From a virus (Duplodnaviria; Heunggongvirae; Uroviricota; Caudoviricetes), in the IMG/VR virus record IMGVR_UViG_3300038345_000251, positions 247,248 through 311,247 of that record: DNA of 64,000 bases; one strand, given 5' to 3'. Positions within the stretch are counted from its first letter, which is position 1. The number at the start of each line of letters is the position of its first letter. This document shows positions 5,015 to 17,344 of the stretch, one piece after another. A program made the translations under genes and the position numbers. A model generated the notes under the pieces. It made no database searches, was not told the DNA's origin, and was given only the letters and a program-made list of their open reading frames with translations.

Positions 5015-5255
5015 AACTCTTTTTACTATAAATAGTTATGAAGTATGAAATTGTATTATTTTGACAAATAAATTGTTTAATTTTTATATTAAAAATACGA
5101 AAGGAATTCCGTAGTCACCTTTCATCACAGATACTTCTGACACTATCTACATCAGCCTAAAGCGAACCGAAACCTGCTTATCATTATTTGAATCTTTCTC
5201 TAACACCCATTTTAGTTAGATATGCTATCTGATTCCCCAACTAGATATTTTTAAC

Positions 5256-5331
5256 TGGAGCAGTGGACGGGACTCGGACCCGCAACCTTGACATTGGCAA
5301 TGTCACTATCTACCAATTGATATACCACTGC
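5256..5331 (-). tRNA. tRNA-Gly(GCC) with encoded CCA
   Basis: loop TT GCC AA, U73-CCA. Confidence 0.93.
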
Positions 5332-5336
5332 ATATA

Positions 5337-5412
5337 TGGATGGCTGGATTTAATACCAACAATAGCGAGACTGTTTCTCGCTGTTTTACCACGTGACATT
5401 AGACTACATCCA
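5337..5412 (-). pseudogene. degenerate tRNA-like element
   Basis: acceptor TGGATG/CATCCA, D- and T-like arms, non-canonical anticodon and T loops. Confidence 0.45.
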
Positions 5413-5415
5413 TAA

Positions 5416-5569
5416 TGGAGCAGGTGAACGGAATCGAACCGTCATAGCCAGATTGTTCAAACACTACGCTTCGGACGTACAATCGTTCTCCCATTTGTTT
5501 GAAATAATTACTCACAGTGAATTGGAACTGTATGGAAGTCTGGCGCACTAACCGTTGTGCTACACCTGC
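5416..5569 (-). tRNA. tRNA-Gly(UCC) interrupted by a 79-nt intron
   Basis: exon1 5569-5534 ends CCAGA-CTTCC; exon2 5454-5416 AA-TCTGG...T-CCA; joining gives a canonical tRNA. Confidence 0.9.
5455..5533 (-). other. AUACRG...C mini-intron in tRNA-Gly(UCC)
   Basis: starts ATACAG; ACAGT/ACTGT pairing; nested stem TTCAAACA/TGTTTGAA with T-like arm; terminal C. Confidence 0.8.
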
Positions 5570-5575
5570 AAAAAC

Positions 5576-5712
5576 AAAAGTCTTTTTACCCTCATTCGGA
5601 TTCGAACCGTTATCTTCAGACTATCTGTCTGCTATTCTACCTATTAAACTACTTATGCAAGGGATTTATTTTGGCGCATACGAAATTGATTATTGATTGC
5701 TGTAAGACTTTT
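5576..5712 (-). ncRNA. stem+ACAGCAA element enclosing a degenerate tRNA body
   Basis: AAAAGTCTT-ACAGCAA...D arm, CAGAC/GTCTG arm, CGG-TTCGAAT-CCG...AAGACTTTT. Confidence 0.55.
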
Positions 5713-5885
5713 TATTAATTTTCTCAGTTTAATTATAACTGTATATGGCGAAGGTTTTTGACCACTCTTTTTACTTACTTAGCTAGCAGTTATTCGATAA
5801 AAAAAGTAAGAAGTTATATCTGAAAGATATTTCGAAATTCTCTTTCATCTACGGAATCAGACACCTTCAAAACCGTAAGCCTCTT

Positions 5886-6617
5886 TTACTGGTTTTTTAT
5901 ATCTTTTTTTCTAAATGGTAAATCGTATTTTTTACACCATTTTCTAACGGCATTATCTGTTACATTATAGATTTTACCAATTTCAACAAAACTTTTTTCT
6001 TTTATCAAGGAACTTAAAACATCTTTTGGCGGAATTGCATTTTTTTTCTTATTGTATGAAATGTTGTTTTTTTCTAAAAATTTGTTTAATGTTTTTCCAG
6101 TTATATGATTTTTTTTATAAATTTCTTTTTTAGGTAATCCGTTGTTAATGTCATTAATTATACTTTCATAATTTAAATAATTAAAAGAATCGTTTGTTTT
6201 ATGTATATAATTATTTTCATTGTAAAATGAAACCTTGTTTTTTTCCTTTTCTTCTTCTTTCTTTTTTTCTTTTTCTTGTCTGATTTTATAATGTATTTCT
6301 CTATGACAGTTAGCACAAAGTAACATACATTTATCAACTTCTTTTTTTAACGTTTCGATATTACATATTTTACTTGCTGAAATATTGAAATCTTTTTGTG
6401 TTGGGTCTTTATGATGAAAGTCAAGTGCTTCAATACACTTGTCATATCCACATATTTCACATTTACCACCTTTATATTCGACAAGTATTTGTTTATAATT
6501 TTTTCTTTTTTTAGCAACAGATTCATAGTTACATTTTTTACATCTTTTTCTTCCTTTTTTGTCAACGGAAAATTCAGTTTTTCCGTGTATCGGACAAAGT
6601 TCTATAATTGTTTCCAT
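5886..6617 (-). CDS. free-standing HNH homing endonuclease with C-terminal HTH (start moved to METII)
   Basis: CxxC..LDFHH..LCANCHREIH HNH motif; ACTATTTATA just upstream. Confidence 0.8.
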   Translation of the reverse strand: METIIELCPIHGKTEFSVDKKGRKRCKKCNYESVAKKRKNYKQILVEYKGGKCEICGYDKCIEALDFHHKDPTQKDFNISASKICNIETLKKEVDKCMLLCANCHREIHYKIRQEKEKKKEEEKEKNKVSFYNENNYIHKTNDSFNYLNYESIINDINNGLPKKEIYKKNHITGKTLNKFLEKNNISYNKKKNAIPPKDVLSSLIKEKSFVEIGKIYNVTDNAVRKWCKKYDLPFRKKDIKNQ

Positions 6618-6687
6618 ATGTTTTTTATTATAAATAGTTTTTGGTTCGAAAAAAATGCGATAATGTAAAAGTTTTTTGTTCGATTTG

Positions 6688-6764
6688 TCGGGACGGCAGG
6701 AATTGAACCTGCATGTAACCAATTACACTTTCAACACCTTATCAGGGTGAGGTGATACGTCCCG
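6688..6764 (-). tRNA. atypical D-arm-less tRNA-Ile(GAU)-like RNA with long extra arm
   Basis: acceptor CGGGACG/CGTCCCG, CACC-CT GAT AA-GGTG, extra hairpin TGTAA/TTACA, T arm GCAGG/CCTGC; only about 7 nt where the D arm should be. Confidence 0.55.
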
Positions 6765-6779
6765 GAGATAAAATACGGA

Positions 6780-6950
6780 TTAAAACTCAACAGGCATACC
6801 CCTAAAAATGTATTTAGTAGAGGTATCGCCTATTTTTCTTCTTCTAAGTTGTTTATGTGCAAGTTTTTTAGTTACTTTTTTTGTTTTTAACCATTGTTTA
6901 TTTGCTTTACCAGCACAATAAAATCCTTTGAAATCTTTTATACTATGCAT
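6780..6950 (-). CDS. small basic hypothetical protein (56 aa)
   Basis: own translation MHSIKDFKGFYCAG...PVEF*. Confidence 0.45.
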   Translation of the reverse strand: MHSIKDFKGFYCAGKANKQWLKTKKVTKKLAHKQLRRRKIGDTSTKYIFRGMPVEF

Positions 6951-6969
6951 ATTATTGAATTTAAAATTG

Positions 6970-7040
6970 TTGGAGTAGAAAGATTCGAACTCTCACTTAC
7001 AGAGCCAGAATCTGTAGTGCTGCCATTACACCATACTCCA
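6970..7040 (-). tRNA. tRNA-Gln(CUG)
   Basis: U1-A72, ACAGA-TT CTG GC-TCTGT. Confidence 0.93.
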
Positions 7041-7049
7041 TAAAAATTG

Positions 7050-7172
7050 TTGGGGGTAGAGGAATCGAACCTCTGTCTCGTCTTTATGAGAGATTTGCTA
7101 AGAAATTGCTGCAAGCTTTTATATCGAAAAGCCTTTTTCGCTTTTCGTATGCTGCCACTACACCAACCCCCA
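7050..7172 (-). tRNA. atypical tRNA(CAU)-like RNA with a ~50-nt stem+GCAGCAA insert in the anticodon stem
   Basis: intact acceptor, D and T arms; TCT-CT CAT AA-AGA; insert GCTTTT/AAAAGC-TT-GCAGCAA. Confidence 0.6.
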
Positions 7173-7179
7173 ATTGTTT

Positions 7180-7386
7180 TTATTTGTCAACTAAATTATT
7201 TCTAAGTCTTTCAAATTCTTTTTTATCTTGTTTATTTTTCTTTTGTAATTTTTCTACTTTGTTATCATTGCTTCCACAATGTCTATCATAGTATTTTTTT
7301 ACTTTAAATGGATAATCATTAAAATCATCACCATAAACACCATGTTTGGATTTTGCTTTTTCAGAATGTAATCTAGTTTTAGACAT
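7180..7386 (-). CDS. small basic hypothetical protein (start moved to MSKTRL)
   Basis: 68 aa; the ORF-track extension overlaps a tRNA-like gene. Confidence 0.5.
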   Translation of the reverse strand: MSKTRLHSEKAKSKHGVYGDDFNDYPFKVKKYYDRHCGSNDNKVEKLQKKNKQDKKEFERLRNNLVDK

Positions 7387-7407
7387 AATTTTATGTTTTA
7401 AAATTTG

Positions 7408-7522
7408 TGTGGATGAACAGATTTGAACTGCTGACACGAAGTTTACCCAAAAAGATGATGCTGTTAATTTCCAGAACTGAAAACATATTGTCTTCTGCTC
7501 TACCAGACTGAGCTACATCCAC
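7408..7522 (-). tRNA. atypical tRNA-Pro(UGG)-like RNA with a stem+ACAGCA insert in the anticodon stem
   Basis: intact acceptor, D and T arms; loop TT TGG GT; insert GTTTTCAG-TT-CTGGAAAT-TA-ACAGCAT. Confidence 0.6.
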
Positions 7523-7531
7523 ATATTAGAC

Positions 7532-7585
7532 GGAAAACGCTTTTCATTGCTACCCAGTAATAATTTAACTTGCTGTGTATTTTCC
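7532..7585 (-). ncRNA. minimal stem+ACAGCAA element
   Basis: GGAAAAT-AC-ACAGCAA...TGGGT...GTTTTCC. Confidence 0.55.
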
Positions 7586-7589
7586 TTTG

Positions 7590-7674
7590 TCGGAGTGGGG
7601 GGATTCGAACCCCCAAGCCCATTACAGGCACAAGTTCCTTAGACTTGCGTGTCTACCAATTCCACCACACTCCG
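7590..7674 (-). tRNA. tRNA-Leu(AAG)
   Basis: class II Leu body, CAAGT-CT AAG GA-ACTTG. Confidence 0.9.
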
Positions 7675-8598
7675 TTTTTTCAAATCTTTTTTCCTATAAG
7701 GTAAATCGTATGATTTACACCATTTCACTATTGTTTTATCACAAACATTATAAAGTTTTGCAATATATCTAAAAGAAAAATTAGTAATTAAATCAAATAA
7801 TTCTTTTTTAGAAGGTCTATTTTTTACTTTTCTTTGTTTTAAATAATACTCATGTTGTTTAATTGTATGTTTTTCATCATATTGCTCAGATTTTTTATAA
7901 TAGTTTGTATATTGTTTACCGTTTTTTGATATTTTTATTTCTCCTTTTGGTACTTTAATTATTCCAATATGAGTAATGTCTTTAATTTTATTATTTGATA
8001 ATAGTTCTTTTAATTTATTATTTATTAAATCATGATTGTTTTTTACTATGTCTTCTGAAATTCTAATAACTTTCCAACCCAAAGAAGTTAATAATAAATC
8101 TTTTTTCTTATCATTTTCTTTTCTTTCTTCATCTAAAAGATGTTGTGAACCATCTATTTCAACCGCAATTTTTTCATTGATAAATGCAAAATCAATATAA
8201 TATGGAAAAATAGATTTCTCTCTTTCAATTAAATATTTTTTATCATATTCATTTTCTTGAAGAAATTTTATAAAACATTTTTCTGGATAAGAAGGTTCAT
8301 TTCTTTTTCTCCAAGCAGTTTCTTCAGGATGTTCTTTTAAATATTTAAGCCTTATTTCTTTTAGTTTTAATTTTGTTTCTTTTGTATGTTTAAAACTCTT
8401 AGGATATTTTTTATGTGACAATGTGATTGATTCTGAAAAATTTCTTGTTATATTACCTAATAGTTTTTCTCTAATCCACATTTTTGATTTAATATTGTAT
8501 TTTTTAACAATATCACGTATTGAACAACCATTTAAATATTCATTTCTTATTTTTTCTTTTTCTTCTTCAGTAAACAAATTATCATATTTTGAACTCAT
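7639..8598 (-). CDS. free-standing DUF559/Vsr-like (PD-D/ExK) homing endonuclease
   Basis: YYIDFAF..KIAVEIDGSQH..D..L...GWKVIRI motif; HTH C-terminus; 3' end overlaps tRNA-Leu. Confidence 0.8.
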   Translation of the reverse strand: MSSKYDNLFTEEEKEKIRNEYLNGCSIRDIVKKYNIKSKMWIREKLLGNITRNFSESITLSHKKYPKSFKHTKETKLKLKEIRLKYLKEHPEETAWRKRNEPSYPEKCFIKFLQENEYDKKYLIEREKSIFPYYIDFAFINEKIAVEIDGSQHLLDEERKENDKKKDLLLTSLGWKVIRISEDIVKNNHDLINNKLKELLSNNKIKDITHIGIIKVPKGEIKISKNGKQYTNYYKKSEQYDEKHTIKQHEYYLKQRKVKNRPSKKELFDLITNFSFRYIAKLYNVCDKTIVKWCKSYDLPYRKKDLKKRSVVELVDTQV

Positions 8599-8672
8599 AA
8601 TTTTATCATTTTATTATAAATATAAGAAAAAAATAAAAACGAACCGATATTTTAAAAAATTTAATGTCCTTG

Positions 8673-8830
8673 TCGTGCATACCAGAATCGAACTGGTGTT
8701 TACAGAATGGGCTTCTTATAAAGTATCGAACTTTCTTCATTCTCACCAAGATTAAAATAAGAAGCTAACTTTTTTCAGATTAAGTTTAACTGTATAAAAT
8801 CTGTCGTCCTAGCCACTAGACGAATGCACG
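8673..8830 (-). tRNA. tRNA-Glu(UUC) interrupted by an 86-nt intron
   Basis: exon1 ends ACAGA-TT TT; exon2 starts C AT-TCTGT. Confidence 0.88.
8710..8795 (-). other. AUACRG...C mini-intron in tRNA-Glu(UUC), position 35/36
   Basis: ATACAG..AACTT..CTGAAA..AAGTT; nested stem GCTTCTTAT/ATAAGAAGC with AAAG-TTCGATA-CTTT arm; terminal C. Confidence 0.8.
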
Positions 8831-8835
8831 AAATT

Positions 8836-8974
8836 TAGTATCTACACGTGAAGCAGGTGTGCACTCCTATCTCTTCACCCTTTTGTATATGTAACACCCA
8901 AGTCATGTTCATATACCTTGCCTCCAAAAGACGCTTGGGAATTTCTTTGAAAACCGTCTTTATCCTTGATACTA
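8836..8974 (-). ncRNA. putative structured intergenic RNA
   Basis: closing stem AGTATC/GATACT, GC-richer than its flanks, no ORF. Confidence 0.25.
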
Positions 8975-8975
8975 G

Positions 8976-9049
8976 TGGAGCGTATCGGAATCGAACCGAT
9001 GACCTCAACATTGCAAGTGTTGCGTTCTAGCCAACTGAACTAACGCCCC
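8976..9049 (-). tRNA. tRNA-Ala(UGC)
   Basis: G3-U70, loop CT TGC AA. Confidence 0.95.
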
Positions 9050-9056
9050 ATAAATC

Positions 9057-9173
9057 GGAAAACTTTATCTTTACGTCCAGTGGACGGGGTTGGACTTGAA
9101 CCAACGAACCTCTCATGTTTTCAATTAAAGTGAAAAATGTTAAACCATTAGCGTAAATTGCTGTATGTTTTCC
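9057..9173 (-). ncRNA. stem+ACAGCAA element with UUA anticodon arm and T arm (permuted tRNA-like)
   Basis: GGAAAAC-AT-ACAGCAA...TTTCA-CT TTA AT-TGAAA...GTTGG-TTCAAGT-CCAAC-CGTCC/GGACG...GTTTTCC. Confidence 0.6.
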
Positions 9174-9174
9174 T

Positions 9175-9249
9175 TGGCGGTGCATACGAGAATCGAACTC
9201 GTACCGCATGATAGACAGTCACGCATCCTAACCATTGGACCAATGCACC
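9175..9249 (-). tRNA. tRNA-Asp(GUC) with encoded CCA
   Basis: loop CT GTC TA, G73-CCA. Confidence 0.93.
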
Positions 9250-9267
9250 GTAAAAAAATGTATAATC

Positions 9268-9381
9268 AGAAAACGTCTTTAAAAATATTTCCATTATCTC
9301 CAAAGGAGACCTTTCAGTTTTTTTGCTGAAAGTTGGATTCGAACCAACAATTTTTTAAGCAAATGTTGCTGTATGTTTTCT
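9268..9381 (-). ncRNA. stem+ACAGCAA element with a T arm followed by a hairpin
   Basis: AGAAAAC-AT-ACAGCAA...GTTGG-TTCGAAT-CCAAC-TTTCAG/CTGAAA...GTTTTCT. Confidence 0.6.
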
Positions 9382-9585
9382 TAATACAAATATACTAATA
9401 AATAATTTAAAAGTCAATAAAACGAAGCATATATATTTTCTTTAGATAATACACGTCTGTATTAAATAGGTCATCATTGATTGCCTTTGGGTACATTGTT
9501 CCTTATCTCATACTATAAGTCAATGGTTTGCTACCGTCACAATCGGTTTTTGCTTCTGGCTTGTTAGGTATGAACTAACAAGTTG

Positions 9586-9804
9586 TGGGAAGGGGAGGAT
9601 TCGAACCTCCGAAGCCGTAAGGCAGCAGATTGTTCCATATAACTGATTCGAACAGTTGATTGCAAGTTTTTAACTTACTCCGACTTTATAACATTTTTTT
9701 GTTACCGTAAGCCTACGACTTTGACCACTTGTCTAATATGGAATTTGGTTTTCAGTTTGCTCTGTATTACAGTCTGCCCCATTTGACCACTCTGGAACCT
9801 TCCC
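9586..9804 (-). tRNA. tRNA-Tyr(GUA) interrupted by a 136-nt intron
   Basis: class II Tyr body; exon1 ends GCAGA-CT GTA; exon2 AA-TCTGC. Confidence 0.9.
9632..9767 (-). other. AUACRG...C mini-intron in tRNA-Tyr(GUA)
   Basis: ATACAG..CTGAAA; nested tRNA-like domain TTCCATAT/ATATGGAA with D arm GAC-AAGTGGTCAAA-GTC and T arm AACTG-TTCGAAT-CAGTT; terminal C. Confidence 0.8.
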
Positions 9805-9810
9805 ATTTAT

Positions 9811-10401
9811 TTACTGTATTAAAACACCTTGTTTGTTTTTTCTAGGTTTATAACCTGTTCTACCTAATTTCCAACCATTGTTTAAATATTCTTGAAGTTT
9901 TTCTTTTAATAAATATTTAACTTTACCTTCTTTATTAATCCAAATTCTTTTGTTTGTTGAATTTTCAGGTAACATTTTTTTTCTTGTTTTTTGTTTTGAT
10001 TCTTCTTTATGGTGTCTATTTTTCCATATAGTATTAAAAGAATCTTTGTTGTTTAAATAGATTTCTTGACTAATCCAAAATTTTTCACCATTTTTGTCTA
10101 TAACTGGTACCATTCCATTAGTACTAAAATACTTACCACCTATTTGAACATTATAGCAATTTTCATCTTTTATTAAAGTTTCATTTACTATTTCCTTTTC
10201 ATATAAAAAGGCTTCTTCTGATGTATTAAAATATTTTAATATTTCTTTTTTAAAGCATTCTATTCCATATTTAATAATTGCTTTTTTAAGAAATTTTCCA
10301 GAACCCATATAACCGTCATCAATATTATCTGTGTTATGTACACCATAATAATATTTGTTGTTAATGGTGTTTGTAATTTTATAAAAATAATGATATTTCA
10401 T
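9811..10401 (-). CDS. free-standing Seg-like GIY-YIG homing endonuclease
   Basis: YFYKITNTINNKYYYGVH..DDGYMGSG N-terminus. Confidence 0.8.
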   Translation of the reverse strand: MKYHYFYKITNTINNKYYYGVHNTDNIDDGYMGSGKFLKKAIIKYGIECFKKEILKYFNTSEEAFLYEKEIVNETLIKDENCYNVQIGGKYFSTNGMVPVIDKNGEKFWISQEIYLNNKDSFNTIWKNRHHKEESKQKTRKKMLPENSTNKRIWINKEGKVKYLLKEKLQEYLNNGWKLGRTGYKPRKNKQGVLIQ

Positions 10402-10595
10402 AACATTTACAGTTTCTTTTTATATAAATAGTAGAAAAACTGTAAATGTAAAGTTTTTTTTCAAAAAAATAACCGATTATACACGAACTCGGTAAACATT
10501 CCTGACTTAACGATTCAGATGGCGATTATTGCTGCAAGAGCAACCACGTGTTTCGATTCCTGGTACCTAGGACCGCACATTTTAACATCATAAAA

Positions 10596-10868
10596 ACAGT
10601 ATTAAGGAACTTTATTTGGTATCTGGCTGTAACCTTATATGCCATATTGCAATTTGTTTATTCTTCGAACAACATATAAGAGCTTCACACACCATTAGAG
10701 AGTTGACCGTAAAGGCTGTTCTTCCTGTTTGAACTATTCCGTCTTCCCTTCGTGTTATCCTTAGTGTGTACCATTGAGGTCATACGTTTTGTGTTCGATT
10801 CACTACGTACTAACGGTTAATCCGTTCACTGCTCTCCCAGCTTGTTCCTGAACTCCTAATAATACTGT
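10596..10868 (-). ncRNA. putative ~270-nt structured ncRNA
   Basis: closing stem ACAGTATTA..GGAAC/GTTCC-TTAATACTGT, no ORF. Confidence 0.35.
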
Positions 10869-10880
10869 AAAGTTATATCG

Positions 10881-10954
10881 TGGGAGTGGTTGGATTCGAA
10901 CCAACGTCTTTCATCTTGTAAGGATGACAGTCTATACCACTGGCGTACACTCCC
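10881..10954 (-). tRNA. tRNA-Val(UAC)
   Basis: TCATC-CT TAC AA-GATGA. Confidence 0.93.
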
Positions 10955-11107
10955 AAAAGCACCACATTTACGGTAACGTGGTCAACCAAGTAATTACTCA
11001 ACGAGTAATATAAGTAAAATACCTACTGATGGAGTAACATATCACACTTAGTTACTCACCATCCCTCCAGTGTGTGAATCCCTTAAAATCTTTCTTACCT
11101 CGGTATT

Positions 11108-11653
11108 TTATTGATAATCTTCAGTTTGTCTAATTCCAAATTTATGAAAGTATCGCAAAGGTCTCCATTTTTTACCATTAACGATAAATCCCCATTTAAT
11201 TTTAGGTCTACCTTCAAACATTAAAGTCCAAGCACCACCTTTAGGAATCTGTAAATAATGTAAGTCTTCTGCTTTTGAAAACCATATTGAATCATCCATA
11301 TTGAAGAAGTTTTTCCAAGAATTGAAAATACCTTCAACGTAACATTTCCGTTGGTTTTTAACTTCATAAGGCGTTCCGTCTTTCCATATTGTAACAGTAT
11401 CGTCAGGATTCTTATTATCTTCGTAAGGCTTTACATTCCAATAATGTCCTTTTAGAACAATACTGAGTAAGTTAGCACTATGGTCGTGAAAATATCTGTT
11501 ATCATCACTTTTAATCCAATGATGTATTCTCATTGAATAACCAAAGAAGATAAAAGTCCATCTAATTAAATAAGGTGCTTCAGGAATACCAAGTTTTTCT
11601 GCCCATCTAATTTGAAAGTTTTTAAATGGTTTCGTGTTTGTACTTCCTTTCAT
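11108..11653 (-). CDS. cupin-like phage protein
   Basis: RIHHWIKSDDNRYFHDH..LSIVLKGHYWN His-rich motif. Confidence 0.55.
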   Translation of the reverse strand: MKGSTNTKPFKNFQIRWAEKLGIPEAPYLIRWTFIFFGYSMRIHHWIKSDDNRYFHDHSANLLSIVLKGHYWNVKPYEDNKNPDDTVTIWKDGTPYEVKNQRKCYVEGIFNSWKNFFNMDDSIWFSKAEDLHYLQIPKGGAWTLMFEGRPKIKWGFIVNGKKWRPLRYFHKFGIRQTEDYQ

Positions 11654-11679
11654 AAAATTTTAATTAAAATTAAACTTTG

Positions 11680-11817
11680 TCAAGGGTGAAGGATTCGAAC
11701 CCCCTGGATTCATCTGGAACGTCTAGAATACCCAAACTATCCCCTTTCGGTCTTCCCTATGTATCTGCTGTTAGCTACTCAGCAGTAAGGCTGTTTTACC
11801 AATTAAACTAACCCCTG
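11680..11817 (-). tRNA. tRNA-like RNA with a large insert replacing the anticodon arm
   Basis: acceptor CAGGGGT/ACCCTTG, D and T arms intact; insert has CTGCTG/CAGCAG hairpin with ACAGCAG, CC-GAAA-GG and TTTGGGT. Confidence 0.5.
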
Positions 11818-11825
11818 TAAATTTG

Positions 11826-11900
11826 TGTGCCCTGAATGAATCGAACATCCGCATTTTCTGGGACGTAAATCCCATTGGTCTGCCACTAGCCTAAAGACAC
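11826..11900 (-). pseudogene. atypical tRNA-Val(UAC)-like RNA with a 6-nt anticodon loop
   Basis: TGGGA-TTTACG-TCCCA, extended variable region. Confidence 0.5.
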
Positions 11901-12196
11901 ATTTCTCACCTAAGATTAACACGATTTTATCTGTCATTCTCACGCACTAGGTACATTCTTGTTTTTTGTGCTGTTCTCACCCCTTTTATGACCCCTAGAC
12001 GCTACTCTATGCATCCTATATTTGGAATTAATGATGCTACCCTACGTCCACACTCATCATAACGTTTAACTGTGGCTTCCATTACCTGTTCCAATCATTT
12101 AATGGACTCCCCCACAGTGAAGCTGTTAATCGGATTTCAACGCTCTCTATTGAAGATTTGAACTTCTACATACCCTAGTAATAGAAAAATATAAAC

Positions 12197-12327
12197 AGGA
12201 AACGTTTTTTGTTTTGTTTTCGCCACTAAACTAACAATGAGAACACACAATCTCATTGTGGGGGATTCGAACCCACCGTCTTCTTTTTTGCAGAAAGTTA
12301 ACAATTTAAAATTGCTGTATGTTTCCT
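12197..12327 (-). ncRNA. circularly permuted tRNA-Cys-like RNA inside a stem+ACAGCAA bracket
   Basis: order: AGGAAAC-AT-ACAGCAA, CTTT-CT GCA AA-AAAG, T arm, ACAATGAG/CTCATTGT acceptor hairpin, D arm, GTTTCCT. Confidence 0.65.
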
Positions 12328-12564
12328 TATCTTATTGTTTTGTGTGTTTTTATTTCAAAAAAATGATGGATGCACAACCACTTCCTATTCCATCATTGTG
12401 TCATTACGTTTTGTGCCAACGTACCCAATTCCACAACACTTATTGGGTAACTTCGTGTAGTTTCAACAATCAAATTACTAAGATTGTAATGGACAGCCAA
12501 AGTAAACTTTGGAACTAATGTAACCACCATTAAATTTCTGCCGTTGTTACGAAAAATAATTCTC

Positions 12565-12633
12565 GGAAAACTAAATTTTAGCGTTTCTGAATTAAAAGTT
12601 CGGAGCTTAAATAAAAGTTGCTGTACGTTTTCC
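12565..12633 (-). ncRNA. stem+ACAGCAA element with a Lys(UUU) anticodon hairpin
   Basis: GGAAAAC-GT-ACAGCAA...TCCGAA-CT TTT AA-TTCAGA...GTTTTCC. Confidence 0.6.
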
Positions 12634-12690
12634 TATATTTTATATTTCTGATACAAATATACAAACTTATTTTTAAAAAAACAAAATTTT

Positions 12691-12772
12691 CAGGGACTTA
12701 CACTGTTTTAATCATGCCTAAACTAACTATCTATTGATAGTGGTGGAATCAAACCAACCTTCTGATGCCAAG
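12691..12772 (-). ncRNA. permuted tRNA-like fragment (T arm, acceptor hairpin, D arm)
   Basis: TGG-TTTGATT-CCA, ACTATC-AATA-GATAGT, TA-GTTT..AAAC. Confidence 0.45.
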
Positions 12773-12948
12773 CGGAAGCGGAGGGATTTGAACCCACGAC
12801 CCACGGATTAGCTTGATGTGTGGAATACGATACCACAATTCGAACTGCAAATGCTACGAGTTTTTCCTTAAACTACATCAAAACATGTTCGTTTCGGTGA
12901 ACAATTCCGTATACAGTCCGTTGCTCTGACCAACTGAGCTACGCTTCC
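12773..12948 (-). tRNA. tRNA-Asn(GUU) interrupted by a 102-nt intron
   Basis: exon1 ends ACGGA-CT GT; exon2 T AA-TCCGT; G73. Confidence 0.9.
12811..12912 (-). other. AUACRG...C mini-intron in tRNA-Asn(GUU), position 35/36
   Basis: ATACGGAATT-GTTC-ACCGAAAC-GAAC; nested TTGATGT/ACATCAA domain; terminal C. Confidence 0.82.
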
Positions 12949-12955
12949 AAAGTTA

Positions 12956-13050
12956 AAACACTTGTTATCAGCCGATTAGAAGTAAGTCTTTCAAAGCATT
13001 GAATTTTAATGAGGTCTGCTTCCTCCTGTACACTTACTAAACAAGTGTTA
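12956..13050 (-). ncRNA. putative ~95-nt structured RNA
   Basis: 10-bp closing stem AACACTTGTT/AACAAGTGTT, inner AGTAAGT/ACTTACT and GAGG/CCTC. Confidence 0.35.
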
Positions 13051-13057
13051 TAAGTAG

Positions 13058-13235
13058 TACTCTCGTTGGGATTCGAACCCAAGACCCACAGCTTAGAACC
13101 CATAATGAGATTCGAACTCAATATTCATTACCTTAGCAATGTTCTATCCTAAATAGAAATTATGGGTTAATAAATCCGTTTCGGTGGATAATTCCGTATG
13201 AAGGCTGTTGCTCTATCCAACTGAGCTACGAGAGC
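13058..13235 (-). tRNA. tRNA-Arg(UCU) interrupted by a 104-nt intron
   Basis: exon1 ends ACAGC-CT TC; exon2 T AA-GCTGT. Confidence 0.9.
13096..13199 (-). other. AUACRG...C mini-intron in tRNA-Arg(UCU)
   Basis: ATACGGAATT-ATCC-ACCGAAAC-GGAT; nested cloverleaf AACCCATAAT/ATTATGGGTT with D, AC-like and T arms; terminal C. Confidence 0.82.
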
Positions 13236-13277
13236 ATCTATATTTTAGTTAAAAAATAAATTCAAAGTAAATGGTTA

Positions 13278-13610
13278 TTAGAGGATTTCCCTAACAATAC
13301 CATAAATGTTATTTCTGCTAATCCAACCGTTCATATGACCGTGATTATTACCAATCAAGTAAGATGAACCTTTTTTGTTGGTTTTAATAGAATGAATTAA
13401 ATGAAGATAATAATGTCCATTTACTTTTGAAAGAACTATATCTCTTTTTTTTAATTCAGTTTCTTCAGTAACAGGTTCGCATATTACAGGTTGTTTAGAT
13501 TTTAAAATTGGTGTCATAGAATTACCAATTCCTGTAATTTTGCAGGTTTCTCCGTTACGAAGATGTTCAGCAGAAAAACGATTTTCAAAACCACTATAAG
13601 TGTATTCCAT
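13278..13610 (-). CDS. S24/S26 peptidase-like protein
   Basis: GNSMTPIL...LHLIH...GNN pattern. Confidence 0.65.
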   Translation of the reverse strand: MEYTYSGFENRFSAEHLRNGETCKITGIGNSMTPILKSKQPVICEPVTEETELKKRDIVLSKVNGHYYLHLIHSIKTNKKGSSYLIGNNHGHMNGWISRNNIYGIVREIL

Positions 13611-14436: not shown

Positions 14437-14514
14437 GGAAAACAAAGTTGATTTATCATTCCAATTACCCTAAAATTGTGATTAAATTAAATTAAAATTT
14501 GCTGTATGTTTTCC
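14437..14514 (-). ncRNA. stem+ACAGCAA element with a Pro(AGG) anticodon hairpin
   Basis: GGAAAAC-AT-ACAGCAA...CAATT-TT AGG GT-AATTG...GTTTTCC. Confidence 0.6.
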
Positions 14515-15164: not shown

Positions 15165-15295
15165 ATATTTGATAGAACCCAACGAAACTATCTGTCCTTG
15201 ATTTCTTTCTTAGTATTATTGTCCACTGCATTTGTGGCTTCAAGGTAGTTAATAAATGAATGCATCATTACATCAACTAAAGGGTTTTTGATTTG

Positions 15296-15882
15296 CGGAG
15301 AGTATAGGATTCGAACCTATGGACCGAAAAACGGTCAACAGTTTTCCTTACCACTATAGTTTTCACTACCAACAATATCATCATGGATTGCACATTTATA
15401 ACAATCTTTATATCAGGATTGCTCCCGTGCCAGGTGCTCCTATTGTTGTTTTGTGGTCTGGAACATACCTCAACCAATATTGAAATCTTGCAAGTATGGC
15501 TGTTACAAGGAAAGAATAATTCATTTCCATCTATAACCAATTTCAACTTAGGTTATTACCATCTGTTCTCTACACACTGTCTATTATTAATCCTAATGCT
15601 TTCACATGCAATGCAGAAGTATTTTTCCATTAGGATTATTTTAACATTGGCTCGGTATTAGCATATTTGGACTGTCCTCTTCCGTCTGAATTCTAAACGA
15701 TGCTTCTGTGTTACCACCAGCATTAATCAGGAATGGTTTGTTATTTAGACGATTATCCGATATATTCCTGCACATCCAAACTTAGCCTTCACCGAATTTG
15801 GTAATTTCTACATTATAAATTTCTTTATAAGCACTCAAATTAACTTTAAGACTGCCGCAATCGACCACTCTGCCAACTCTCC
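15296..15882 (-). tRNA. tRNA-Ser(UGA) interrupted by a group I intron
   Basis: exon1 ends GCAGT-CT T; exon2 GA AA-ACTG; class II Ser body, G73. Confidence 0.9.
15347..15847 (-). mobile_element. group I intron (501 nt, no endonuclease ORF) at tRNA position 34/35
   Basis: 5' exon ends in U, intron ends in G; P/Q/R/S-like cores AATTCGGTGAAG, AATACCGAGC, GTAGAGAACAGA, GAGGTATGTTCCA. Confidence 0.85.
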
Positions 15883-17272: not shown

Positions 17273-17344
17273 GTGATGTATATAGGAATCGAACCCATCT
17301 TGTCACGTTTAGAGTGTGCCGTTCTACCGATGAACTAATACATC
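17273..17344 (-). tRNA. amber suppressor tRNA(CUA)
   Basis: GATGTAT/ATACATC-A, D and T arms canonical, loop CT CTA AA; anticodon stem has only 3 central pairs. Confidence 0.75.

Follow-up and report, generated by a model that had tools for sequence, protein, structure and literature searches.

Candidate introns with a nested tRNA-like domain split five tRNA genes of a large rumen phage and resemble the 'enigmatic' introns of Lak megaphages

The window analysed here is a stretch of 64,000 nucleotides, bases 247,248-311,247 of the IMG/VR record IMGVR_UViG_3300038345_000251, a single virus genome of 392,823 bp and 29.6% G+C which is rated complete by CheckV and whose DNA is present in cattle-gut and rumen metagenomes. 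The tRNA genes of the window form one 15-kb cluster, all of them on the minus strand, and five are split in the anticodon loop by inserts of 79-136 nt. Three of the split genes (Gly, Asn and Arg) were found by the Rfam tRNA model, and the other two (Glu and Tyr) by reading the strand. The first-pass annotation of this DNA had described the five inserts, in Gly(UCC), Glu(UUC), Tyr(GUA), Asn(GUU) and Arg(UCU), and claimed that their deletion restores a perfect 7-nt anticodon loop; with the inserts deleted, ARAGORN called a canonical tRNA with the named anticodon in all five cases. The split genes, the inserts (called introns below) and their parts are listed as follows, with the parts given 5' to 3'.

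5416-5569, minus strand: split tRNA-Gly(UCC) gene; Rfam tRNA match at 5419-5569 (53.1 bits) across the insert; spliced form called tRNA-Gly(tcc) by ARAGORN.
5533 to 5455, minus strand: Gly intron, 79 nt, final C at 5455; 5' module 5533 to 5510, linker 5509 to 5504, tRNA-like domain 5503 to 5456 (8-bp stem, 4-bp T stem, one bulged G).
8672-8830, minus strand: split tRNA-Glu(UUC) gene, read from the sequence; spliced form called tRNA-Glu(ttc) by ARAGORN.
8795 to 8710, minus strand: Glu intron, 86 nt, final C at 8710; match to covariance model R1 (30.8 bits); pseudoknot module 8795 to 8767 (CAG/CUG and AACUU/AAGUU), tRNA-like domain 8765 to 8711 (9+4 bp).
9585-9804, minus strand: split tRNA-Tyr(GUA) gene; spliced form called tRNA-Tyr(gta) by ARAGORN.
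9767 to 9632, minus strand: Tyr intron, 136 nt, final C at 9632; 5' hairpin only, 9767 to 9753 (no second stem), A-rich linker 9752 to 9744, near-complete nested tRNA 9743 to 9633 (8+5 bp).
12772-12948, minus strand: split tRNA-Asn(GUU) gene; Rfam tRNA match at 12773-12948 (53.7 bits); spliced form called tRNA-Asn(gtt) by ARAGORN.
12912 to 12811, minus strand: Asn intron, 102 nt, final C at 12811; pseudoknot module 12912 to 12886 (CGG/CCG and UGUUC/GAACA), tRNA-like domain 12882 to 12812 (8+4 bp, 9-nt loop).
13057-13235, minus strand: split tRNA-Arg(UCU) gene; Rfam tRNA match at 13058-13235 (50.6 bits); spliced form called tRNA-Arg(tct) by ARAGORN.
13199 to 13096, minus strand: Arg intron, 104 nt, final C at 13096, fold z-score -2.47; pseudoknot module 13199 to 13174 (CGG/CCG and AUCC/GGAU), linker 13173 to 13169, full nested cloverleaf 13168 to 13097 (9+4 bp).

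All five introns of the window start with AUAC(A/G)G and end in C. The insertion sites had been placed at 35/36 in Glu, Asn and Arg and at 36/37 in Gly and Tyr. This held for Glu and Asn, the only two genes in which the boundary is unambiguous (35/36); in Arg it can slide by 3 nt, as exon 1 and the intron both finish in UUC, in Gly by 1 nt in either direction, and in Tyr by 1 nt. The Asn boundary was confirmed by a DNA allele without exactly 12811-12912. In a contig from a near-identical strain (run X4, listed as 'DNA?'), 12810 is followed directly by 12913, so that the 102-nt Asn intron is missing precisely, and the compared flanks of this contig showed no mismatches to the window. On the same contig, the whole split tRNA-Arg gene (13052-13233) is replaced by 81 other letters.

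The five split genes belong to heavily used codons. No intron-less copy of the five anticodons had been noticed in the window, and this holds across the whole 392,823-bp genome, where none of the five has an intron-less second gene. The codons that they read occur at 70.8 (GAA), 56.5 (AAT), 47.7 (TAT), 23.7 (AGA) and 14.9 (GGA) per thousand, and include three of the six most used phage codons. When the unspliced genes were given to ARAGORN, the Asn gene was called Ser and the Gly gene Pyl. The boundary rule is thus useful for annotation, as standard tRNA finders miss or mis-assign such split genes.

Relatives were reached via the neighbouring adenylosuccinate-synthetase gene as anchor, and by motif scans. 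Nine further introns were found in five related phage records, as follows.

IMG/VR 3300001478_000094: Thr(UGU) intron.
ENA contig L182: Arg(UCU) and Glu(UUC) introns.
IMG/VR 3300021426_000068: Pro(UGG), Asn(GUU), Thr(UGU) and Glu(UUC) introns.
IMG/VR 3300031994_000044: Glu(UUC) intron.
IMG/VR 3300028048_000281: Arg(UCU) intron.

Together with one free-standing unit, the 14 introns made a set of 15 units from seven phage records. The set was parsed by hand in Python, because MAFFT alignments of all members misaligned the 5' modules. All 14 spliced forms are canonical tRNAs. Across the family the insertion sites are 34/35, 35/36 or 36/37, and therefore it is the intron, not the tRNA body, that defines them. 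The AUAC(A/G)G start, true of every intron in the window, is not invariant in the family, where CUACAG, AUAAGG and UUAAGG also occur. Three close members went into covariance model R1, which detects only part of the family. An exact-pattern scan of IMG/VR with the Asn/Arg 5' module gave no match, and the 5' module alone was unspecific as a search descriptor (496 matches vs 372 in shuffled sequence). A whole-record tRNA search of 28 phage records showed no split tRNAs among the best 150 matches listed.

The parse showed one plan in all 15 units. At the 5' end, three unpaired bases N-U-A are followed by a 3-bp stem C-R-G/C-Y-G, whose first pair is A-G in two members; U2, A3 and G6 are invariant. 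The hairpin loop then pairs with a stretch after an A-rich run, which gives a second stem of 4-6 bp and hence an H-type pseudoknot in 13 of the 15 units; the second stem is absent from the Tyr intron of the window and the Glu intron of record G002. The 5' module (15-29 nt) and a linker of 0-11 nt stand ahead of an acceptor-like stem of 8-9 bp. A D-loop-like GG lies 4-12 nt past this stem in every unit (7-12 nt in 14 of them), and a T stem of 4-5 bp carries a loop that is usually of the UUCGAAU type, with further arms sometimes present. The intron ends with the 3' strand of the acceptor-like stem and then a single C, which is never able to pair.

These results bear out the CRG/CYG stem, the crossing second stem, the acceptor-like stem and the T arm that had been read from the five introns of the window, with three corrections. 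The nested stem is present, with a length of 8-9 bp in place of 7-10 bp; the crossing stem of the Gly intron exists, and AUUC/GAGU fits the family geometry in place of AAUU/AAUU; and the crossing itself stands in 13 of the 15 units, being absent from two and seen in none of the Lak introns described below. For the Tyr intron, the stem and the T arm also appear in the minimum-energy fold.

The helices covary. Over the four helices of the 15 units, the parse contains 285 Watson-Crick, 10 G-U, no A-C and 2 A-G pairs, counts that are inflated since the helix boundaries were chosen by us. Among the units, 15 distinct acceptor-like stems, 12 distinct T stems and 11 distinct second stems occur, all of them fully paired with their own partners. 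With the partner of other members, the paired fraction falls from 1.00 to 0.42 for the acceptor-like stem, 0.60 for the second stem and 0.61 for the T stem. Thirteen of the 15 units have the second pseudoknot stem, where shuffled loops would give 2.96 (P about 1e-9, optimistic because the members are related). Compensatory double changes were seen in the first stem, between the Arg introns of L182 (CAG/CUG) and L289 (CGG/CCG), and in the second stem, between the Glu introns of the window (AACUU/AAGUU) and L182 (AAGUU/AACUU). Such swaps and compensatory changes support the covarying helices and nested tRNA mimic of the first reading.

The length of the nested helix is constrained too. Ordinary tRNAs have a stack of 12 bp from acceptor and T stems, followed by N73. 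Here the two stems sum to 13 bp (9+4 or 8+5) in 13 of the 15 units. With four Lak introns included, the 13-bp sum holds in 17 of 19, against about 47% expected if the lengths were independent (P about 1e-4, again optimistic for related members). A constant distance between a tRNA-type elbow and the end of the helix is what marks a ruler-type enzyme.

The Lak introns bear directly on the claim that the window holds a new class of tRNA intron. Lak megaphages, Prevotella-infecting gut phages, have tRNAs with 'enigmatic introns' with 'no hit in rfam' (Devoto et al. 2019, Nat Microbiol, PMC6784885, Table S6, Fig. 4). These are anticodon-loop inserts of about 80-115 nt in Gly-UCC, Thr-UGU, Phe-GAA and 'Tyr' genes, the Thr intron having a possible tRNA inside and being absent in some strains; the boundaries were set with eukaryote-mode tRNAscan, and no architecture or mechanism was given (PMC6784885). 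By eye, all four show the plan of the present family: an (N)UA start, a hairpin opening with C...G, an A-rich linker, a tRNA-like domain and a final C, with 13 stacked base pairs each (8+5, 9+4, 8+5 and 7+6). The two sets are also alike in being anticodon-loop inserts of about 80-140 nt in large gut phages, with no Rfam family match, and in precise presence or absence between strains (Lak Thr; Asn 12811-12912 here). The claim of a new class therefore fails, since the same plan was already present in Table S6 of PMC6784885 in 2019. The sets differ in their phages (about 540 kb in Lak; 393 kb, 29.6% GC and cattle rumen here) and in the 5' module, where only a plain hairpin could be seen in the four Lak introns whereas most members here have a pseudoknot and a short linker.

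When the family rule (AUAC...C) was applied to the 'tRNA-Tyr(GTA)' gene of Lak phages A1, A2 and C1, the exons joined as CUGU and UAA around the intron, which reads Asn(GUU). The gene is thus probably a tRNA-Asn(GUU), judging from its sequence, and its short variable loop is in keeping with this reading. The published Lak intron boundaries appear to be offset. No later paper explaining Lak-type introns was found in the literature.

Several results indicate that the introns are mobile, as the first-pass annotation had proposed. The Asn intron is exactly present or absent, relatives have genes without an insert for the same tRNA types, and nearly one and the same intron lies in two different genes, the Arg gene of L182 and the Thr gene of G002. 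Precise presence and absence with no target duplication would equally suit seamless DNA insertions, that is, non-autonomous hairpin-type elements of the IS200/IS605 kind that knock out tRNA genes and are never spliced; the introns are hairpin-rich, and genes of the TnpB/IS605 type are found close to the tRNA clusters of relatives. We hold this explanation to be very improbable. There is no conserved target sequence on either flank, nor any conserved flanking tetra- or pentanucleotide of the IS200/IS605 type; the last four exon-1 bases are UUCC, UUUU, UGUA, CUGU, CUUC, CUUG, UUGG or AUUU. Wobble pairs occur only in the sense strand (10 G-U vs 0 A-C) and the tRNA-specific elbow signals GG and UUCGAAU are conserved, which indicates selection on RNA. 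The exons are canonical and evolve in a compensatory way across diverged phages: three diverged Arg(UCU) genes have the intron at the same site, with their acceptor and T stems changed in step. Furthermore, the five split genes are the sole readers of some of the most used codons of the phage. Compensated exons, needed tRNAs and selection at the RNA level together make a strong case for splicing of the inserts and against dead genes. Taken as a whole, the sequences identify the inserts as probable true intervening sequences of one mobile family, of the same kind as the 'enigmatic' introns of Lak. They would be transcribed within the pre-tRNA, and their removal, presumably by splicing, would be needed for a working tRNA.

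Candidate enzymes for rejoining the exons are encoded by the phage. Two Rnl-type ligases (PF09414) were found, the second at about 28.5 kb of the record. A repair neighbourhood outside the window (G000:C1:217.7-225.5 kb) contains an Rnl-type ligase, a weak match to an RlaP-like nucleotidyltransferase beside it (E 5e-4, below the Pfam cut-off), an HD phosphoesterase fused to an AAA_33 polynucleotide-kinase-like domain, and an adjoining CCA-adding enzyme. From their domains, the ligases and the HD-kinase fusion are predicted to form a full heal-and-seal set. T4 Rnl1 was not found in the phage genome, in a search that had no positive control.

The introns were also compared with known classes. 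A search of 5200-13400 against Rfam returned no family besides tRNA at E<=1, and so no known intron or ribozyme family; the surroundings of the free-standing unit described below likewise gave none besides tRNA at E<=1. That the introns are distinct from group I, group II and bulge-helix-bulge introns, as had been stated, was upheld by the lack of core matches and of the hallmarks of these classes. Group I introns in bacterial and phage tRNAs share the anticodon-loop site, the mobility and the nearby free-standing or associated homing-endonuclease genes. They are about 200 nt or more in length, against 79-136 nt here; the group I core (Intron_gpI, P3-P9) was not matched in the searched interval, the 3' end is C and not G in all 14 introns, and the 5' site is not preceded by a conserved U, the last base of exon 1 being C, U, A or G. 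For group II there was no Rfam match over the same interval, the ends are NUA...C and not GUGYG/AY, and the length is again 79-136 nt. Bulge-helix-bulge introns, which are removed by an endonuclease with RtcB or Trl1, are alike in the logic of protein-dependent cutting and ligation, the variable anticodon-loop positions and the heal-and-seal route. Their signal is an exon-intron helix, whereas here the intron itself contains the signals, in the form of a tRNA mimic, and inspection of the junctions by eye showed no complementary 4-mer between intron start and end.

Neither 5200-13400 nor the surroundings of the free-standing unit gave an Rfam match at E<=1 to any small self-cleaving ribozyme (hammerhead, HDV-like, twister, twister-sister, pistol, hatchet or hairpin), the presence of theta in Rfam 15 being unchecked. 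The 5' module was mapped by hand onto the HDV-like, hammerhead and pistol folds, and none fits. Theta ribozymes, which are HDV-like, process tRNA ends in gut phages and lie in 3' trailers (Kienbeck et al. 2024, PMC10879173). They resemble the 5' module in being small structured RNAs that abut phage tRNAs, in needing a cut at their own 5' edge, and in belonging to phages of Bacteroidota and Bacillota hosts. They differ in having the nested double pseudoknot of HDV and a place in 3' trailers, whereas the 5' module lies in the anticodon loop and is without P3, P4 and J4/2.

These tRNA-end-processing ribozymes of gut phages are a precedent for the possibility that the 5' module, perhaps with the tRNA-like domain, is a new and very small ribozyme, self-cleaving or self-splicing, which would cut at its own 5' edge as theta ribozymes do, the resulting 2',3'-cyclic phosphate and 5'-OH ends being healed and sealed by the HD-kinase and ligase of the phage. 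The module recurs with compensatory changes and invariant U2, A3 and G6, and an HD phosphoesterase-kinase fusion would suit ends with cyclic phosphate and 5'-OH. In three more distant phages (G010, G027 and G012) the intron 5' module is free-standing, which implies a role outside introns. Self-cutting nevertheless seems unlikely to us. The invariant bases are very few for an active site, the second stem is missing from the window Tyr and G002 Glu introns with none seen in Lak, Rfam gave no ribozyme match at E<=1, and the layout is not that of HDV (no P3, P4 or J4/2, and three unpaired nucleotides before the first stem). The 3' cut and the 13-bp rule would also be left unexplained.

The free-standing unit may be the ancestral free form of the intron family. 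The free module (AUACAG AGUA AUUC A CUG UGAA GAAU) was seen outside any host tRNA at L198:12626-12740 (= G010:C1:144458-144572), in L272 and in L274; in L198 and L272 it stands 3 nt ahead of a genuine tRNA-Tyr(GUA). Just upstream of the free module/tRNA units (G010, G027 and G012) lies a conserved element with the loop AGUAGCUAA and CCGAAAC, apparently pseudoknotted, with covarying long-range helices and no Rfam match (for example at L198:12520-12625, and in L274). The same loop recurs in the window at 11680-11817, an odd 138-nt tRNA-like gene in which a hairpin loop AGUAGCUAA is followed by AUACAU...CCGAAA. A further repeated element lies between genes on the minus strand, at 14508, 12321, 9375, 9167 and 7579 of the window. 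It consists of GGAAAAC-AUACAGCAA, with the variants UACACAGCAA and ACGUACAGCAA, then a hairpin; in the copies at 14508 and 7579 a matching GUUUUCC closes the unit about 60-100 nt downstream, and some copies have a T-arm-like hairpin. It has AUACAG and a hairpin in common with the intron 5' module and recurs in the relatives G001 and L154. Scanning IMG/VR with an exact intergenic 15-mer gave mostly chance matches, though one, L040, contained a Glu intron.

The nested tRNA-like domain raises another possibility, that it is a product: a small RNA gene, made up of the 5' module and a tRNA or mini-tRNA, lodged in tRNA genes, from which RNase P and RNase Z would free a mini-tRNA to act, for example, as decoy, primer or cofactor, the rejoining of the host tRNA halves being secondary. 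The Tyr intron of the window does contain a near-complete tRNA (34.3 bits as tRNA in Rfam, 9633-9742), the Arg intron and the G002 Asn intron are four-armed cloverleaves, and a possible tRNA lies inside the Lak Thr intron (Devoto et al., PMC6784885). In G010 and G027, moreover, the same 5' module stands directly before a bona fide tRNA-Tyr (51.6 bits). We consider such a product quite improbable, since most nested domains are without an anticodon arm and diverse in sequence, with only the elbow and the helix length kept, which is handle-like; and splicing of the host tRNA would still be needed.

The explanation that we prefer, to which we give about an even chance, is that these are genuine introns, cut out under guidance of the elbow, with the exons rejoined by phage ligases; most of the doubt falls on the enzymes. 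The 3' cut would fall one unpaired C past the mimic of a tRNA top half, at the end of the 13-bp stacked helix that runs from the GG/T-loop elbow. A tRNA end-processing enzyme would dock on the elbow and make this cut first. An RNase Z-like enzyme cutting after the discriminator-like C would be the likeliest candidate, because RNase Z would cut at just such a site, a single unpaired base past a tRNA-like helix. The 5' cut, 3 nt (N-U-A) upstream of the small hairpin that is usually extended to an H-type pseudoknot, would then be made by a second nuclease or by the 5' module itself. Finally, the two halves, held together by the anticodon stem, would be healed and sealed by the HD-kinase fusion and the two Rnl-type ligases, with the weak RlaP-like match as a further candidate.

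Metatranscriptome contigs were examined for joined exons. In four rumen sets, contigs matched to 5400-13300 at 90% likeness showed apparent exon-exon joins, made of conserved tRNA pieces that are also deep in DNA runs. For Arg, two RNA and two DNA runs (12740-13270, 97%) gave joins of the pieces 13064-13098 and 13200-13229, with high depth in the DNA runs too. The conserved exon pieces behind the apparent joins are probably from other organisms. No RNA contig ran over the introns at 97% (12740-13270, two RNA runs).

Several points weigh against removal by elbow-guided cutting and phage ligation. The metatranscriptome contigs gave no RNA evidence for splicing, the apparent joins being made of the conserved pieces named above; intron-less DNA alleles also exist. 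The phage genome is without an RNase Z-type metallo-beta-lactamase, RtcB or EndA (PF01974), so that host enzymes must be assumed. RNase Z would account for the 3' cut only, and the 5' site, 3 nt before the hairpin, fits no nameable enzyme. RNase P was considered as the 5' cutter and rejected, since its cut would fall at the base of the inner stem instead of the 5' splice site, so that exon 1 would keep the 5' module. The layout of 13 bp and C differs from the 12 bp and N73 of ordinary tRNAs, which may put acceptance by RNase Z in doubt. The inflated pairing counts and optimistic P values given above belong on this side as well.

Other features of the tRNA cluster were also observed. Three free-standing endonuclease-like open reading frames (ORFs) lie inside it, at 5886-6722, 7639-8598 and 9811-10401; one is HNH-like (by eye), one DUF559/Vsr-like and one GIY-YIG, the last of which stops immediately upstream of the split tRNA-Tyr gene. 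These ORFs may be helpers of intron spread at the DNA level. A tRNA-like gene at 7408-7522 (Rfam, 46.6 bits) has an insert of about 41 nt with ACAGCA in the anticodon region, of a different type from the five introns, and is conserved in two relatives (G001:C1:24381-24498 and G002:C1:7492-7612). At 15295-15882, the intron mode of ARAGORN gave a tRNA-Ser(UGA) with a 501-nt insert, for which Rfam reported no group I intron at the gathering threshold. An amber-suppressor tRNA(CUA) gene at 17273-17344 is conserved beside one and the same gene block in each relative examined (L180, L182, L186, L187, L154 and L032).

To our knowledge, bacteria and their viruses splice tRNAs only via self-splicing group I introns. 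With a little less than even confidence, we suggest that the Lak introns and those described here represent a third route of tRNA splicing, specific to bacterial viruses, in which an elbow with a 13-bp ruler recruits ordinary tRNA end-processing enzymes for one cut, a tiny 5' hairpin or pseudoknot, which may itself be a minimal ribozyme, sets the other, and a phage ligase joins the exons. The present genome is a rich test set, with five introns in the sole genes for five heavily used codons, a near-isogenic allele without one of them, clear structural rules (NUA and hairpin, 13-bp helix, GG and T-loop elbow, final C) and candidate healing and sealing enzymes of the phage. If the suggestion is true, there would be protein-assisted (or new ribozyme) splicing of tRNAs in the bacterial world, and the maturation of the most used tRNAs of these phages would depend on phage enzymes.

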